Notes: a model not told the origin generated them from the sequence alone. Positions 31,512-40,495 are shown, counted from the first letter of the stretch. The stretch is 64,000 nucleotides of DNA from Escherichia coli (GCF_022846255.1 NZ_AP025682.1); one strand, 5' to 3'. A program made the numbers and translations.

Positions 31512-31545
31512 CAGGAGTACCAGTGCGGTACTCCTGTTGGTTTTA
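31512..31545. terminator. Hairpin terminator at the yhiD / chu island junction
   Basis: caggagtac-cagtgcg-gtactcctg stem-loop followed by ttggtttt; the chuV stop codon overlaps the T-run. Confidence 0.5.
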
Positions 31546-32313
31546 ATGATCGAGGACGATCAGTGGTGAATGGTTGGCAGGATCTTTAAGTACGGTAATA
31601 TCCGCGCCGTAGAGCATTGTCAGCGCCTGCTGTGTCAATACGTCCTGCGGCTTACCATTTGCGATAACCTTTCCTTTTTGCATTAATACAACACGGTCTG
31701 CATAACGCGCGGCAAGATTTAGATCGTGCAATACGCAGCAAACATTGAACTGCCGTTCGTGAACTAACTGGCGTAATAAACGAAACAAGTGCTGCTGATG
31801 GTGAATATCCAGCGCCGAAGTTGGTTCATCAAGAAATAACCATTTCGGTGAGGGAGTAGGTTCCCAGAGTTGCACCAGCAGGCGCGCTAATTGCACGCGC
31901 TGTTGTTCACCACCGGATAATTGCCGATAGTTGCGGTTTGCTAACGCCTGACAGTCACATAACGCCATTATTTGTGCTGTTTCATTATCCTGATTACCAG
32001 TACGATGCGGATGCCGCCCCATCTGGATAACTTCTTGTACGCTGAATGGAAACGCCATGTGGCTATTTTGACGCATCACGGCCCGGTGTTTCGCCAGTTC
32101 AGTAATCGACCATTCATTTAATGGCTTATTAAACAACCGACATTCGCCGCTATCAGGTTGAAGATAGCCGGTTAGCTGGCGAAGCAGCGTAGATTTTCCC
32201 GCACCATTAGGCCCGAGGATGGCAACAATTTCCCCACCGGGAAAAGTCAGCGAGACATTATCAGTCAGACGCCGCCCCTGAAGGCTATAAACCAGATTCT
32301 GGGCGCTGATCAT
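31543..32313 (-). CDS. chuV: Haem ABC transporter ATP-binding protein ChuV (HmuV)
   Basis: Walker [10 protein letters not shown] and ABC signature LSGGEQQR; start set at internal ATG (MISAQNL), which overlaps the chuU stop by ATGA. Confidence 0.85.
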
Positions 32314-33302
32314 GTGATCCTCCGGTTGCGCAGAATCAACCACATAAAATAAGGGCCACCAAGCAGGCTGGTTAATAATCCCACGGGCATTTCTGCTGGC
32401 TGTACCAGCGTGCGGGCAAGCGTGTCTGCCATCAGCAATAAACAGGCTCCGGCGAGGGCGGAACAAGGGATTAGCCAGCGGTGATTTGCCCCGGTAGTCA
32501 TGCGAATCAGATGCGGGATCACCAGGCCAATAAAGCCGATAATGCCGCTTACCGATACGGCAGCACCAACGAGCAGTGAGCTCACTAACAGTAATTGCTG
32601 GCGTTTACGCTTCACGTTCACGCCGAGGTAGTGGGCTTCTTCATCACCGAGCTGCAGTAAATTCAGCGTTCCGGCGAGACAAGTTGTTGCGATAATGGCC
32701 GGTAGGATGAATGAACTGGCAACCAATAACGTCGGCCATTGCGCCTGTCCAAGATTGCCCATCATCCACAATGTGAGTTGTCGTAGCTGCTGCTCATCGC
32801 CGATATAGCTCAGGATGCCGATCGCTGCGCCGCACAGGGCATTGATGGCGATACCGGCGAGTAATAATTGCATCATGCTGCCATCGCGATGGCGCTGCGT
32901 GATGAGAAAAATGATGGTGCAGACCACTAAACTTCCGGCAATGGCAAACACCATTTGCTCATAGAGCACCAGCACCACTGGGAAGGAGAAGGGCAGCACA
33001 ATAGCAACGCCAACCATTAATGCAGAACCGCTACTGACGCCGAGTAATCCAGGGTCAGCCATTGGGTTGCGAAAAAGCCCCTGCATAATTACCCCGGCGG
33101 TTGCCAACGCTGCACCTACCAGCACCGCCAGCAAAACCCGTGGTAGACGAATATTGAGCCAGATATCGCGGTATTCCTCATCAAAAAGGGCATCAAAACT
33201 GATCTTTAACGCTCCCTGACTGGCACCAAACAGCACCAGAGCTAGCAATAATAGTGATAGCCCCATAAAGACCCTGGCGGAAGAGAGTGAATCCTTGAGC
33301 AC
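32310..33302 (-). CDS. chuU: Haem ABC transporter permease ChuU
   Basis: 330-aa FecCD-type polytopic permease. Confidence 0.85.
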
Positions 33303-37435: not shown

Positions 37436-39418
37436 ATGTCACGTCCGCAATTTACCTCGTTGCGTTTGAGTTTGTTGGCTTTGGCTGTTTCTGCCACCTT
37501 GCCAACATTTGCTTTTGCTACTGAAACCATGACCGTTACGGCAACGGGGAATGCACGTAGTTCCTTCGAAGCGCCTATGATGGTCAGCGTTATCGACACT
37601 TCCGCTCCTGAAAATCAAACTGCTACTTCAGCCACTGATTTGCTGCGTCATGTTCCTGGAATTACTCTTGATGGTACCGGACGAACCAACGGTCAGGATG
37701 TAAATATGCGTGGCTATGATCATCGCGGCGTGCTGGTTCTTGTCGATGGTGTTCGCCAGGGAACGGATACCGGACACCTGAATGGTACTTTTCTCGATCC
37801 GGCGCTGATCAAGCGTGTTGAGATTGTTCGCGGACCTTCAGCATTACTGTATGGCAGTGGCGCGCTGGGTGGAGTGATCTCCTACGATACGGTCGATGCA
37901 AAAGATTTATTGCAGGAAGGACAAAGCAGTGGTTTTCGTGTCTTTGGTACTGGCGGCACGGGGGACCATAGCCTGGGATTAGGCGCGAGCGCGTTTGGGC
38001 GAACTGAAAATCTGGATGGTATTGTGGCCTGGTCCAGTCGCGATCGGGGTGATTTACGCCAGAGCAATGGTGAAACCGCGCCGAATGACGAATCCATTAA
38101 TAACATGCTGGCGAAAGGGACCTGGCAAATTGATTCAGCCCAGTCTCTGAGCGGTTTAGTGCGTTACTACAACAACGACGCGCGTGAACCAAAAAATCCG
38201 CAGACCGTTGAAGCTTCTGATAGCAGCAACCCGATGGTCGATCGTTCAACAATTCAACGCGATGCGCAGCTTTCTTATAAACTCGCCCCGCAGGGTAACG
38301 ACTGGTTAAATGCAGATGCAAAAATTTACTGGTCGGAAGTCCGTATTAATGCGCAAAACACGGGGAGTTCCGGCGAGTATCGTGAACAGATAACAAAAGG
38401 AGCAAGGCTGGAGAACCGTTCCACTCTATTTGCCGACAGTTTCGCTTCTCACTTACTGACATATGGCGGTGAGTATTATCGTCAGGAACAACATCCGGGT
38501 GGCGCGACGACGGGCTTCCCGCAAGCAAAAATCGATTTTAGCTCTGGCTGGCTACAAGATGAGATCACCTTACGCGATCTGCCGATTACCCTGCTTGGCG
38601 GAACCCGCTATGACAGTTATCGCGGTAGCAGCGACGGCTACAAAGATGTTGATGCCGACAAATGGTCATCTCGTGCGGGGATGACTATCAACCCGACCAA
38701 CTGGCTGATGTTATTTGGCTCATATGCTCAGGCATTCCGCGCCCCGACGATGGGCGAAATGTATAACGATTCTAAACACTTCTCGATTGGTCGCTTCTAT
38801 ACCAACTATTGGGTGCCAAACCCGAACTTACGTCCGGAAACTAACGAAACTCAGGAGTACGGTTTTGGGCTGCGTTTTGATGACCTGATGTTGTCCAATG
38901 ATGCTCTGGAATTTAAAGCCAGCTACTTTGATACCAAAGCGAAAGATTATATCTCCACGACCGTCGATTTCGCGGCGGCGACAACTATGTCGTATAACGT
39001 CCCGAACGCCAAAATCTGGGGCTGGGATGTGATGACGAAATATACCACTGATCTGTTTAGCCTTGATGTGGCCTATAACCGTACCCGCGGCAAAGACACC
39101 GATACCGGGGAATATATCTCCAGCATTAACCCGGATACCGTTACCAGTACCCTGAATATTCCGATCGCTCACAGTGGCTTCTCTGTTGGTTGGGTCGGTA
39201 CGTTTGCCGATCGCTCAACACATATCAGCAGCAGCTACAGCAAACAACCTGGCTATGGTGTGAATGATTTCTACGTCAGTTATCAAGGGCAGCAGGCGCT
39301 CAAAGGCATGACCACTACTCTGGTATTGGGCAACGCCTTCGATAAAGAGTACTGGTCGCCGCAAGGCATCCCACAGGATGGTCGTAACGGAAAAATTTTC
39401 GTGAGTTATCAATGGTAA
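37436..39418 (+). CDS. chuA: TonB-dependent outer-membrane haem/haemoglobin receptor ChuA
   Basis: 660-aa ORF with a signal peptide, TonB-box-like ETMTVTA and a C-terminal ...FVSYQW barrel terminus. Confidence 0.9.
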   Translation: MSRPQFTSLRLSLLALAVSATLPTFAFATETMTVTATGNARSSFEAPMMVSVIDTSAPENQTATSATDLLRHVPGITLDGTGRTNGQDVNMRGYDHRGVLVLVDGVRQGTDTGHLNGTFLDPALIKRVEIVRGPSALLYGSGALGGVISYDTVDAKDLLQEGQSSGFRVFGTGGTGDHSLGLGASAFGRTENLDGIVAWSSRDRGDLRQSNGETAPNDESINNMLAKGTWQIDSAQSLSGLVRYYNNDAREPKNPQTVEASDSSNPMVDRSTIQRDAQLSYKLAPQGNDWLNADAKIYWSEVRINAQNTGSSGEYREQITKGARLENRSTLFADSFASHLLTYGGEYYRQEQHPGGATTGFPQAKIDFSSGWLQDEITLRDLPITLLGGTRYDSYRGSSDGYKDVDADKWSSRAGMTINPTNWLMLFGSYAQAFRAPTMGEMYNDSKHFSIGRFYTNYWVPNPNLRPETNETQEYGFGLRFDDLMLSNDALEFKASYFDTKAKDYISTTVDFAAATTMSYNVPNAKIWGWDVMTKYTTDLFSLDVAYNRTRGKDTDTGEYISSINPDTVTSTLNIPIAHSGFSVGWVGTFADRSTHISSSYSKQPGYGVNDFYVSYQGQQALKGMTTTLVLGNAFDKEYWSPQGIPQDGRNGKIFVSYQW

Positions 39419-39466
39419 TCATCTGCCCCGATATTTCGGGGCATTTATCTGGAAGGAAGAGAGACA

Positions 39467-40495
39467 ATGAACCACTACACACGCTGGCTTGAGTTAAAAG
39501 AACAAAATCCCGGAAAGTACGCGCGTGACATCGCAGGTTTAATGAATATCAGCGAAGCAGAACTGGCATTTGCACGCGTCACGCACGACGCGTGGCGGAT
39601 GCGCGGCGATATTCGTGAAATTCTGGCGGCGCTGGAAAGCGTTGGTGAAACCAAATGTATTTGTCGTAATGAATATGCAGTCCATGAGCAAGTTGGCTCG
39701 TTCACAAACCAGCATTTGAACGGACATGCCGGATTGATCCTCAATCCGCGCGCGCTGGATTTACGTCTGTTTCTCAATCAATGGGCCAGTGTTTTCCACA
39801 TCAAAGAAAACACGGCTCGTGGCGAACGCCAGAGTATTCAGTTCTTTGATCATCAGGGCGATGCATTACTAAAAGTTTATGCCACCGACAATACCGATAT
39901 GGCGGCATGGAGTGAGCTTCTGGCACGGTTTATCACCGATGAGAATACGCCGCTTGAGTTAAAAGCCGTTGATGCGCCAGTTGTTCAAACGCGAGCCGAT
40001 GCCAGTGTGGTCGAGCAAGAGTGGCGGGCGATGACCGACGTTCATCAGTTTTTTACGTTGCTCAAGCGCCACAACCTGACGCGCCAACAGGCGTTCAATC
40101 TGGTGGCAGACGATTTGGCCTGCAAAGTATCCAACAGTGCGTTGGCGCAAATTCTTGAATCTGCACAGCAGGATGGCAATGAAATCATGGTGTTTGTTGG
40201 CAACCGTGGCTGCGTACAGATTTTCACCGGTGTGGTAGAAAAAGTGGTGCCAATGAAAGGTTGGCTGAATATTTTCAACCCGACGTTTACCCTTCATCTA
40301 TTAGAAGAGAGCATTGCTGAAGCCTGGGTTACCCGTAAACCGACCAGCGATGGTCACGTAACCAGTCTGGAATTGTTTGCCCATGATGGTACGCAGATAG
40401 CGCAACTTTATGGTCAACGTACAGAAGGTGAACAGGAGCAAGCGCAATGGCGTAAGCAAATTGCTTCGTTGATACCGGAAGGCGTTACTGCATAA
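39467..40495 (+). CDS. chuS: Cytoplasmic haem oxygenase/haem-binding protein ChuS
   Basis: 342-aa ORF immediately downstream of chuA (MNHYTRWLELKEQNPGKYARDIAG). Confidence 0.9.
   Translation: MNHYTRWLELKEQNPGKYARDIAGLMNISEAELAFARVTHDAWRMRGDIREILAALESVGETKCICRNEYAVHEQVGSFTNQHLNGHAGLILNPRALDLRLFLNQWASVFHIKENTARGERQSIQFFDHQGDALLKVYATDNTDMAAWSELLARFITDENTPLELKAVDAPVVQTRADASVVEQEWRAMTDVHQFFTLLKRHNLTRQQAFNLVADDLACKVSNSALAQILESAQQDGNEIMVFVGNRGCVQIFTGVVEKVVPMKGWLNIFNPTFTLHLLEESIAEAWVTRKPTSDGHVTSLELFAHDGTQIAQLYGQRTEGEQEQAQWRKQIASLIPEGVTA

Follow-up and report, generated by a model that had tools for sequence, protein, structure and literature searches.

The chu haem-uptake locus of Escherichia coli: probably an old alternative allele of the yhiD–dctR gap in the acid fitness island

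Our analysis concerns the chu haem-uptake locus in a 64-kb stretch of E. coli DNA (GCF_022846255.1, NZ_AP025682.1; hereafter the window, which means the whole stretch of 64,000 nucleotides). We consider it probable, with real room for doubt, that this locus is an old alternative allele of the gap between yhiD and dctR, exchanged between lineages via flanking homology. Earlier publications already cover the locus, where it lies and how puzzlingly it is distributed. The evidence that carries our reading is the shared position of chu across Escherichia, its divergence in step with the neighbouring genes, and the short spacers that occupy the same gap in chu-negative genomes.

Gene content and predicted function

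All eight chu genes have intact reading frames, with chuVUYXWT divergent from chuAS and with yhiD and dctR on either side. The chu locus of the window is 99.8% identical to the RefSeq-annotated locus of strain SF-468, and its open reading frames match the expected NCBIfam and Pfam families. Judged by these matches, the cluster corresponds to the well-established eight-gene chu haem-uptake locus of non-K-12 E. coli, and the first-pass annotation of the sequence, which had placed eight chu genes between yhiD and dctR, was right in content and coordinates. Every reading frame of the variable segment between the flanking genes is assignable to a chu gene, and the chuV start and chuU stop overlap by 4 bp. 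The genes are as follows.

30844..31491, + strand: yhiD, left flanking gene, MgtC/SapB family (NCBIfam NF007431, 398 bits; RefSeq annotation)
31543..32313, − strand: chuV, haem ABC transporter ATPase (NF010068, 395 bits; RefSeq annotation)
32310..33302, − strand: chuU, haem ABC transporter permease (BtuC/FecCD-type permease matches; annotated ShuU/ChuU in RefSeq)
33351..33974, − strand: chuY, NAD(P)H-binding, annotated as anaerobilin reductase (Pfam PF13460, 129 bits; RefSeq annotation)
33974..34468, − strand: chuX, cytosolic haem carrier, HutX family (TIGR04108, 210 bits; PF06228)
34481..35818, − strand: chuW, radical-SAM methyltransferase of anaerobic haem degradation (TIGR04107, 571 bits)
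35838..36752, − strand: chuT, periplasmic haem-binding protein (PF01497, 121 bits; RefSeq annotation)
37436..39418, + strand: chuA, TonB-dependent outer-membrane haem/haemoglobin receptor (TIGR01785, 588 bits against a cut-off of 317; RefSeq annotation)
39467..40495, + strand: chuS, two-domain HemS-type haem-degrading protein (PF05171, 275 bits, in two stretches; RefSeq annotation)
40552..41082, − strand: dctR (yhiF), right flanking gene, LuxR/GerE-type regulator (PF00196; RefSeq annotation)
41235..41801, − strand: slp, terminal gene of the acid fitness island (RefSeq annotation)

Profile matches and RefSeq names together indicate the complete chu/shu set of parts, namely the receptor ChuA, the proteins ChuT, ChuU and ChuV, and the proteins ChuS, ChuW, ChuX and ChuY. 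The role assigned to the locus by these names, haem uptake and utilisation, is well established for chu/shu. In this system, ChuA imports haem through the outer membrane in a TonB-driven manner, and ChuT, ChuU and ChuV take it through the periplasm and inner membrane. Handling of haem and its degradation to free iron fall to ChuS under aerobic conditions and to ChuW, ChuX and ChuY under anaerobic conditions.

Three candidate regulatory elements lie in the chuT–chuA region.

36776..36794, no strand: Fur-box-like site directly upstream of chuT, within 3 mismatches of the Fur consensus
37127..37145, no strand: Fur-box-like site in the chuA promoter region, with 2–3 mismatches
37407..37438, + strand: FourU RNA thermometer in the chuA 5′ UTR (Rfam RF02597 shuA_thermo, 60.1 bits against a gathering score of 58)

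When up to 3 mismatches to the Fur consensus were allowed, only two sites were found in the 64-kb window, both in the chuT–chuA spacer, against a chance expectation of 0.03. A Fur site at shuT has been demonstrated experimentally (PMC5458455), and in the well-established chu/shu system Fur represses both divergent operons, chuAS and chuTWXYUV. The FourU element spans the chuA Shine-Dalgarno sequence and start codon and makes chuA translation temperature-gated; the thermometer in the chuA/shuA leader is the subject of an experimental paper (PMC3660397).

Boundaries of the variable segment

In K-12, yhiD and dctR are direct neighbours and chu is missing, which agrees with the earlier description of the locus as a marker of non-K-12 lineages. 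Junction alignments with chu-negative genomes show that homology ends at 31496, 5 bases beyond the yhiD stop, and restarts at 40551; both boundaries are precise to within one base. The segment between them and its two hairpins are as follows.

31497..40550, no strand: variable segment, 9,054 bp, GC 50.3%, in place of which K-12-type genomes have a 35-bp spacer
31511..31537, no strand: left boundary hairpin, 11 base pairs, within the chu-specific segment
40508..40535, + strand: right boundary hairpin and T-rich tail, terminator of chuS, within the chu-specific segment

The 35-bp K-12 spacer, GTGGCAGCGTAGCCAGACTCACCGTAAGCCTGAAA, is missing from chu-positive genomes, so the event that separates the two forms is a replacement and not a pure insertion; the empty K-12 site does not equal the two flanks abutted.

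The left hairpin had been described as a yhiD terminator marking the boundary of the island. It exists, but it belongs to chu and has no counterpart in K-12, so that it is no landmark of a pre-existing site; it is kept in L003, L006 and O157. Its predicted folding energy is −21.1 kcal/mol (z −4.8) on the + strand and −17.9 kcal/mol (z −5.9) on the − strand. Since a T-run (31538–31546) follows it on the + strand, the hairpin can end yhiD transcription as an intrinsic terminator. On the − strand, where no T-run is present, it lies directly past the chuV stop. The chuV stop (TTA on the + strand, 31543–31545) falls inside the TTGGTTTTAAT run 3′ of the hairpin, an overlap that had been noticed before. 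The right hairpin is stable on the + strand only (−19.4 kcal/mol, z −5.1, versus −6.5 kcal/mol on the − strand) and is kept in L003, L004, L006 and L007. The chu island would supply terminators of its own, with one strong hairpin serving yhiD and chuV and a second serving chuS. The K-12 spacer folds into no significant structure (z about 0).

The earlier statement that flanking repeats, an integrase and a tRNA are lacking was borne out by each search. The two edges share no direct or inverted repeat, and the junction alignments contain no target-site duplication. ARAGORN found no tRNA in the 64-kb window, and the annotation of the near-identical SF-468 record lists neither an integrase nor a transposase over the stretch hdeD–arsC. 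The locus was, however, said to lie next to the acid fitness island, and in fact it lies inside, with slp–dctR on one side and yhiD–hdeBAD–gadE–mdtEF–gadWX–gadA on the other. Synteny with the K-12 and O157 annotation extends over 19 kb on each side. GC content is 50.3% in the island, 49.4% in the whole window and 41–46% in the flanks; the compositionally deviant part is the flanking acid fitness island, not chu. None of the classical marks of a mobile or pathogenicity island (tRNA, mobility gene, flanking repeats, deviant composition) was found.

Distribution in Escherichia

Among 5,426 complete E. coli genomes, the full chu locus occupies the site in 2,234, the site is intact and empty in 3,174, and partial forms occur in 4. 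No plasmid-borne chu was found in these genomes, and near-identical matches in PLSDB (97.6%) were confined to two 4.9-Mb records, the other eleven matches being distant homologues of 60–80% identity. The allele in the window is of the B2 type, closest to SF-468, S88, 536, CFT073 and Nissle. K-12, with the empty site, and O157:H7, with chu, are about 99–99.5% identical in the flanks as far as the junction itself; going outwards from it, the first difference comes at 60 bp on the left and at 195 bp on the right. The survey yielded no empty site with B2-like flanks (best match 98.0%), which argues that recent allele swapping is rare. The distribution within E. coli is also what one loss on the A/B1/C branch, the published view (PMC10362622), would give, and both points weigh against our reading.

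Outside E. coli, where our sample is one genome per species, the same acid-fitness-island position is occupied in E. albertii and two further genomes at 8–10% divergence. In L003, L006 and E. albertii L007 the chu genes have dctR on one side and yhiD (or hdeB) on the other, and the junction sequences are conserved, the right one in all five chu-bearing loci and the left one in E. coli, L003 and L006. Divergence runs in parallel in chu and the flanking genes, with identities of about 95–96% to MOD1, 91–92% to SCPM, 90–93% to E69 and 89–90% to E. albertii. The shared site and this parallel divergence point to an old and largely vertically inherited chu locus. Published reconstructions likewise have chu as part of the original acid fitness island and infer its loss on the K-12 lineage (PMC5799925, PMC10362622).

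Spacers of the empty site

The first-pass annotation had proposed that a deletion scar of chu sequence in chu-negative genomes would weaken its reading of chu as an insertion. No such scar was found: the K-12 spacer shows no significant likeness to the chu island or its intergenic ends and contains no chu remnant, and the empty site is not a plain join of chu-positive flanks. The K-12 spacer aligns with the spacers of Escherichia sp. E1V33 and E. whittamii (p ≤ 0.001; 22/36 ungapped matches, counted by eye), and the BLAST alignments pass through it in one piece. The alignments indicate that the spacer is homologous in K-12, E. whittamii and E1V33, although it is short (35–37 bp) and the empty-site lineages outside E. 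coli are two, mutually close at the locus.

Nearly every E. coli empty site (about 3,173/3,179) has one and the same spacer. A second, MFDS-type spacer of 36 bp occurs in six E. coli genomes and differs from the K-12 spacer at about 40–50% of core positions; its immediate flanks are identical, and it shares the motif TCGCC..C.CTACT with E1V33. These comparisons suggest that a fresh deletion did not give rise to the empty allele. The E. fergusonii-type yhiD–dctR spacer (74 bp) could be aligned with neither the chu nor the spacer allele and so does not polarise the event as insertion or deletion. When reverse-complemented, the K-12 spacer weakly resembles the chuS terminator hairpin (p 0.007–0.02, not significant after about 90 tests), a likeness that, if real, would favour an origin by deletion or rearrangement.

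Apparent traces of recombination are seen at the locus itself, besides the near-identity of the K-12 and O157:H7 flanks. In strains HH45 and HH97, which have a K-12-like background, yhiD, the hairpin, chuV, chuU and part of chuY are fused to a complete K-12 spacer and a K-12-type dctR. Within the island, chuX and the 3′ part of chuW form mosaic patches, in which B2 and O157 are about 94% identical and B2 and E69 95.8%.

Origin of the two states

An in-situ deletion, the published reconstruction (PMC10362622; discussed in PMC5799925), would have chu enter together with the acid fitness island ahead of the E. albertii split and be removed by one illegitimate deletion on the K-12 lineage (phylogroups A, B1 and C); on this account the 35-bp spacer would be filler made by the deletion. 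The divergence of chu in step with its flanks, the single spacer in nearly all E. coli empty sites and the weak inverted likeness to the chuS hairpin all speak for it, and the near-identity of K-12 and O157 flanks up to the junction is what a recent local event would leave. However, a recent deletion in E. coli cannot account for a homologous spacer of the same length and position in E. whittamii and E1V33, nor for the second spacer allele, and the spacer matches no chu sequence significantly. We regard in-situ deletion as possible but unlikely. A different account makes the yhiD–dctR spacer a hot spot of mutation or rearrangement, for example by hairpin-driven template switching between the convergent genes, with spacers and chu boundaries as independent products instead of old alleles. 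Between E1V33 and E. whittamii the spacer differs by 16% and the flanks by 4–5%, hairpins stand at both edges, and the chu boundary, an ERIC-associated deletion in L004 and the HH45 junction all end within a few bases of TAATCTGT. Yet the K-12 spacer lacks significant secondary structure, the MFDS-type spacer and E1V33 have specific motifs in common, and point mutation alone would hardly produce the 15-fold excess divergence between K-12-type and MFDS-type spacers, whose flanks are identical. A hot spot is therefore improbable as the source of the alleles.

Recent horizontal insertion into a K-12-like yhiD–dctR site, in an ancestor of the pathogenic lineage and by a scarless mechanism, would explain the sharp boundaries, the absence of chu from K-12-type genomes and the patchy distribution in E. 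coli, and related haem systems of 66–69% identity do exist in other enterobacteria, some on large plasmids. The shared site and junctions in E. albertii and other diverged Escherichia and the parallel divergence with the flanks largely refute it. It also has to contend with a GC content of chu that equals the genome background beside compositionally odd flanks, with the lack of any mobility gene, tRNA, repeat or plasmid copy (0/5,426 genomes), and with the 35 bp that were replaced. This reading of chu as an inserted island is that of the first-pass annotation; on these grounds it is not supported, and we consider such an insertion very improbable.

We favour an old allelic system at the convergent yhiD–dctR spacer, with at least three alternative alleles: the 9,054-bp chu allele, the 35-bp K-12-type spacer and the 36-bp divergent spacer. 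The conserved right and left junctions suggest a single origin of the chu allele, and the homology between species a single origin of the spacer allele; both would be older than the splits of several Escherichia species. Homologous recombination in the flanking acid-fitness genes, lineage sorting, or both may have spread the alleles over the lineages. Exchange through flanking homology would need no integrase, tRNA site or repeat, and the boundaries would be sharp because long-term recombination homogenised the flanks as far as the non-homologous segment. In the genome of the window, chu would be a long-standing resident and no recent arrival.

Comparison with known systems

The chu locus of O157:H7 (O-island 140) and UPEC and the shu locus of Shigella dysenteriae (Wyckoff et al. 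1998, Mol Microbiol 28:1139, as cited in PMC5799925) have the same eight genes, order, orientation and site at 96.6–99.8% identity. They likewise have Fur boxes and a FourU thermometer, and nothing material sets the locus of the window apart from them. The Hem/Hmu/Hut loci of Yersinia, Klebsiella, Pantoea and Vibrio have the same functional parts, including a TonB-dependent receptor, a HemS-type protein, binding protein, permease and ATPase, and HutW/HutX-type proteins. However, their nucleotide identity is only about 66–69% over parts of chuS and chuA, and they lie in other genomic contexts, some on megaplasmids. Pathogenicity islands associated with tRNA genes, such as LEE at selC and HPI at asn-tRNA, resemble chu in their link to virulence, accessory gene cluster and patchy distribution. 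Unlike them, chu comes with neither a tRNA nor an integrase, lacks direct repeats and does not deviate in GC, and its transfer appears to depend on flanking homology only. The acid fitness island with its haem locus described with xenoGI (PMC5799925, PMC10362622) has chu in the same position, in E. albertii and some E. coli, with E. albertii lacking yhiD. Those papers proposed a 'clean deletion' on the K-12 lineage or left the matter as a puzzle; our analysis adds that the empty site has a 35-bp spacer with apparent homologues in other Escherichia species, that the spacer comes in a second allele and that a hybrid of chu and spacer exists.

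Gene content and regulation of the chu locus

The eight chu genes lie between yhiD and dctR on two divergent strands, as the first-pass annotation had described, and all of their reading frames are intact.

Genes of the chu cluster and its flanks (window coordinates)
30844–31491: yhiD, flank of the cluster
31543–40495, − strand: reading frames of chuV, chuU, chuY, chuX, chuW and chuT
31543–40495, + strand: reading frames of chuA and chuS
40552–41082: dctR, flank of the cluster

Family assignment of the chu genes by NCBIfam and Pfam profile matches
chuV: haem ABC ATPase (NF010068, 395 bits)
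chuU: BtuC/FecCD-type permease (family match)
chuY: NAD(P)H-binding protein (PF13460)
chuX: HutX (TIGR04108)
chuW: radical-SAM ChuW/HutW (TIGR04107, 571 bits)
chuT: periplasmic binding protein (PF01497)
chuA: TonB-dependent haem receptor (TIGR01785, 588 bits)
chuS: two-domain HemS protein (PF05171)

SF-468, a bloodstream isolate whose chu locus is annotated in RefSeq, matches this region at 99.8% identity, and S88, 536, CFT073 and Nissle 1917 match it at 99.6–99.7%, which marks the window as B2-type E. coli DNA. Two Fur-box-like sites, at 36776–36794 and 37127–37145, both fall in the chuT–chuA spacer and are the only ones in the 64-kb window, where 0.03 would be expected by chance. The FourU thermometer of shuA/chuA was found at 37407–37438, over the Rfam gathering score. 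Published experiments demonstrate Fur control and the thermometer for shuA/chuA and shuT (PMC3660397, PMC5458455). Given the family matches, the Fur sites, the thermometer and the published experiments, the function of the locus, Fur-repressed and temperature-gated haem uptake and degradation, is not in doubt.

The chuT–chuA regulatory spacer (36753–37435) is AT-rich (GC 37–39%) and 88–91% identical between the B2 window and O157:H7, compared with about 97–98% in the coding parts. In SF-468 and O157 OK1 alike, the RefSeq locus tags leave out one number between chuT and chuA, which suggests that a feature was formerly called there and has since been withdrawn. Between chuA and chuS (39424–39443), a perfect GC-rich hairpin of 8 bp with a T-rich tail behind it may serve the chuAS operon as an internal attenuator or a partial terminator.

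Boundaries of the chu segment

Comparison with K-12, where yhiD and dctR are indeed neighbours, revealed that homology stops at 31496, 5 bases beyond the yhiD stop, and restarts at 40551, 1 base before the dctR stop. Between these points the window has 9,054 bp and K-12 has 35 bp (GTGGCAGCGTAGCCAGACTCACCGTAAGCCTGAAA), a spacer that is absent from the window genome. The difference is thus a replacement rather than a pure insertion. The locus had been placed next to the acid fitness island; it lies inside it, between slp–dctR and yhiD-hdeBAD-gadE-mdtEF-gadWX-gadA, as noted earlier in PMC5799925 and PMC9144400.

The absence of mobility features, also reported in the first-pass annotation, held on closer analysis: no tRNA was found within the 64-kb window, no repeat pairs the two ends of the island, and the SF-468 record annotates no integrase or other mobility gene between hdeD and arsC. 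Since mobility machinery is lacking, flanking homology is the obvious vehicle for allele movement. The base-sharp boundaries could have been produced by long-term recombination in the flanks up to the edge of the non-homologous segment, a process that would need no site-specific enzyme.

The chuV stop codon (31543–31545) lies in the T-run of a strong hairpin at 31511–31537, as described. This hairpin had been assigned to yhiD; it does stand next to that gene, but it is part of the chu-specific segment and is lacking in K-12. On the + strand it folds with an energy of −21.1 kcal/mol (z −4.8); the − strand value is −17.9 kcal/mol (z −5.9). A right hairpin at 40508–40535 (−19.4 kcal/mol, z −5.1, + strand only), also within the chu-specific segment, is the chuS terminator. 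Folding of the K-12 spacer gave no significant structure (z about 0). The island therefore carries its own terminators and gives yhiD one that K-12 lacks. As the island is the sole source of a strong terminator downstream of yhiD, strains with and without chu may differ in how well transcription of yhiD is insulated from that of dctR, its convergent neighbour.

In the acid fitness island, two patches of the B2 window are hyperdivergent from K-12 as well as from O157: about 20480–22480 (gadA–gadX spacer and gadX), with up to about 8% divergence over 1 kb, and about 28480–29480 (gadE–hdeD spacer region), with up to about 4.8%. Elsewhere in this comparison divergence is 1–2%, and K-12 and O157 differ by about 1% throughout. 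The slp–arsC stretch (41900–42980) is very AT-rich (GC 30–36%), is annotated as a frameshifted pseudogene in relatives, carries an IS5 in K-12, and represents a variable segment adjoining the acid fitness island. Further on, arsC (42985–43410) is an orphan: arsB and arsR, about 1.7 kb next to arsC in K-12 and O157, are absent, and the sequence after arsC continues into the dinQ–gorA region (43410–44080), an arrangement shared with E. coli HH45.

Distribution in E. coli and other Escherichia

The chu locus is known to contribute to the fitness of extraintestinal and enterohaemorrhagic E. coli, and the standard Clermont phylotyping PCR scores chuA, present or absent, among its four markers. A survey of 5,426 complete E. 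coli genomes found the full locus at this site in 2,234, part of it in 4 and an intact empty site in 3,174; none had chu on a plasmid. Two full-length matches in the plasmid collection PLSDB were rejected as evidence of plasmid carriage, as they are 4.9-Mb records and evidently chromosomes. A composite query of B2 flanks joined to the K-12 spacer found no empty site in a B2-like background, which would mark recent loss, among the complete genomes (best match 98.0%). Allele swapping thus appears to be rare on recent time scales.

A DctR scan with one genome per species returned six Escherichia loci.

Comparison loci from the DctR scan
L003: labelled E. coli SCPM-O-B-8794, about 8–9% diverged; full chu, dctR to yhiD
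L006: labelled E. coli E69, about 8–10% diverged; full chu, dctR to yhiD
L007: E. albertii type strain NBRC 107761; full chu, with yhiD and the left hairpin missing
L004: Escherichia sp. MOD1-EC7003; chuS–chuA only
L005: Escherichia sp. E1V33; empty
L008: E. whittamii; empty

The right junction sequence is kept in all five of the chu-bearing loci compared, and the left junction with its hairpin in L003 and L006. Nucleotide identity to the window runs parallel, locus by locus, in chu and the flanking genes: about 95–96% in L004, 91–92% in L003, 90–93% in L006 and 89–90% in E. albertii. The gorA–rsmJ core region, used for a rough species ordering, gave inconsistent and mosaic identities. GC content is 50.3% in the island, 49.4% on average in the window and 41–46% in the flanking acid fitness island; it is the flanks, rather than chu, that are compositionally foreign. 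The proposal that the island was inserted into a K-12-like site is therefore poorly supported: the site is shared with E. albertii, and chu matches its host in divergence and GC. The shared site and junctions, the parallel divergence and the GC content indicate that chu was at this site before E. albertii and E. coli split, and since then it has largely diverged together with its host. This old residence agrees with PMC5799925 and PMC10362622.

Two of these loci have been rearranged. In E. albertii (L007, 19560–19626), the chuV stop directly follows the T-run of the hdeB terminator hairpin, which is a second, independent rearrangement ending at the chuV edge. In MOD1-EC7003 (L004), 13647–14299 corresponds to window 31497–37005; the locus has lost chuTWXYUV together with about 250 bp of spacer on the chuT side, and keeps chuA and chuS intact. 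An approximately 85-bp partial copy of a presumably ERIC/IRU-like repeat replaces the lost segment directly after TAATCTGTAT, and a full copy of about 120 bp lies inverted within the chuA leader. The repeat also occurs once in L011, an E. fergusonii-type contig (2232–2349).

Empty-site spacers and the age of the alleles

The first-pass annotation held that a scar of chu sequence at chu-negative sites would weaken an insertion reading. No such scar was found in the empty sites, and neither the 9-kb segment nor its intergenic ends are significantly similar to the K-12 spacer. Local alignment of the spacer with the whole segment on both strands scored at the shuffle mean, 176 of 300 shuffles being at least equal. 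In anchored comparisons, four empty-site spacers were also set, in either orientation, against the intergenic ends on the left and right of chu in six genomes. The reverse-complemented K-12 spacer resembled the chuS hairpin (p 0.007–0.02), the sole match at that level, which does not stay significant over about 90 tests and is restricted to this spacer.

The empty-site spacers of E1V33 and E. whittamii (36–37 bp) align with the K-12 spacer at 22 of 36 ungapped positions by eye, and local alignment supports this (p ≤ 0.001 against shuffles, with no signal from the reverse complement). The E1V33 junction, spacer included, gives a single-piece BLAST alignment to 3,178 E. coli genomes. Six E. coli genomes, including MFDS1022581 (NZ_CP169399, locus L013, 1801–1842) and 2013C-4282, have a second spacer, GTGGTAGCGAAATCACACTCGCCACCCTACTGGAAAT, which differs from the K-12 spacer at roughly 40–50% of core positions and shares TCGCC..C.CTACT with E1V33. 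For 40 bp on either side these sites are identical to K-12; their wider flanks differ by about 2.7–4% from K-12, O157 and B2 equally.

A deletion of chu on the K-12 lineage has been inferred (PMC10362622). It fits the flanks of K-12 (empty) and O157:H7 (chu), which are about 99–99.5% identical for kilobases; on the left the closest difference is 60 bp from the junction, on the right 195 bp, and no imported-tract signature was found beside the junction in this comparison. One spacer common to nearly all E. coli empty sites is also as a deletion would leave it. Three results do not fit a recent in-situ deletion, however: the spacer is not chu-derived, an aligning spacer of near-equal length occurs in E1V33 and E. 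whittamii, and a very different one occurs in six E. coli genomes. A deletion cannot arrive at one and the same spacer on two occasions, nor can a recent one give such different alleles; the chu allele and the spacer allele thus each seem to be of single, old origin. As to which came first, yhiD and dctR are adjacent without chu in L011 (YhiD 73% identical, in a cluster named E. fergusonii), which shows that an acid fitness island without chu exists and weakly favours an originally uninterrupted site. Its 74-bp spacer, tried as an outgroup to polarise the event, aligns with neither chu nor a spacer allele. The inverted resemblance of the K-12 spacer to the chuS hairpin points weakly the opposite way and loses significance after multiple-test correction.

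Recombination between alleles

In E. coli HH45 (NZ_CP116411, locus L012, 5954–8140) and HH97 (NZ_CP116409), the allele runs from yhiD through the left hairpin of the island, chuV and chuU into the 3′ part of chuY, which meets the first base of the complete K-12 spacer with a one-base overlap; K-12-type dctR follows. This allele was found in only 2 of the 5,426 genomes, which differ from each other by 1.2% over 501 bp around the junction. The flanks of HH45 are K-12-like (99.6% on the left), and its chu fragment is 98.5% identical to B2 versus 97.5% to O157. These hybrids are direct evidence of recombination between the chu and spacer allele classes. They may have arisen by a one-sided homologous crossover in yhiD of an empty-site recipient, combined with an illegitimate join at the edge of heterology.

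Within the island, B2–O157 identity falls to about 94% in chuX and the 3′ part of chuW, where B2–E69 identity is 95.8%; this pattern points to exchange between chu-bearing lineages. By coordinates, the patches lie at 33240–34840 and 36037–36440, with B2–O157 identity down to 94–95% and E69, different at the species level, as close or closer (95.8%), which suggests mosaic recombination within chu.

We tentatively propose, as a possibility rather than a probability, that the yhiD–dctR spacer is a long-lived multi-allelic site, a trans-species polymorphism kept by balancing selection and moved only by homologous recombination. Its alleles would number at least three, the 9-kb chu segment, the K-12-type spacer and the MFDS-type spacer, mutually unalignable or hyperdivergent. 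The benefit of haem uptake set against the cost of ChuA exposure is one example of selection that might act. If this is true, a virulence-linked iron system is a trans-species presence/absence polymorphism, and its razor-sharp boundaries are a sign of age rather than of site-specific insertion.

Relation to known systems

The position inside the acid fitness island, the presence in E. albertii and the puzzling distribution are already published (PMC5799925, PMC10362622); prior sources on the chu/shu locus include Wyckoff 1998, as cited in PMC5799925. Our additions are modest: the exact 9,054-bp versus 35-bp replacement, the island-borne terminators, the cross-species spacer homology, the second hyperdivergent spacer allele and the natural chu/spacer hybrid. 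They leave the basic picture of a well-characterised locus unchanged. Seeing chu as an old allele that moves through flanking homology affects how the chuA phylotyping marker should be read, with the HH45/HH97 hybrids and the MFDS-type empty sites as rare exceptions, and addresses the small published puzzle of “clean deletion or gene conversion” (PMC5799925). Compared with a classical mobile pathogenicity island, the chu locus departs from the type in every structural criterion. In contrast, every sequence-level defining feature of the chu/shu locus (O-island 140 in O157:H7) that we tested is present in the window.
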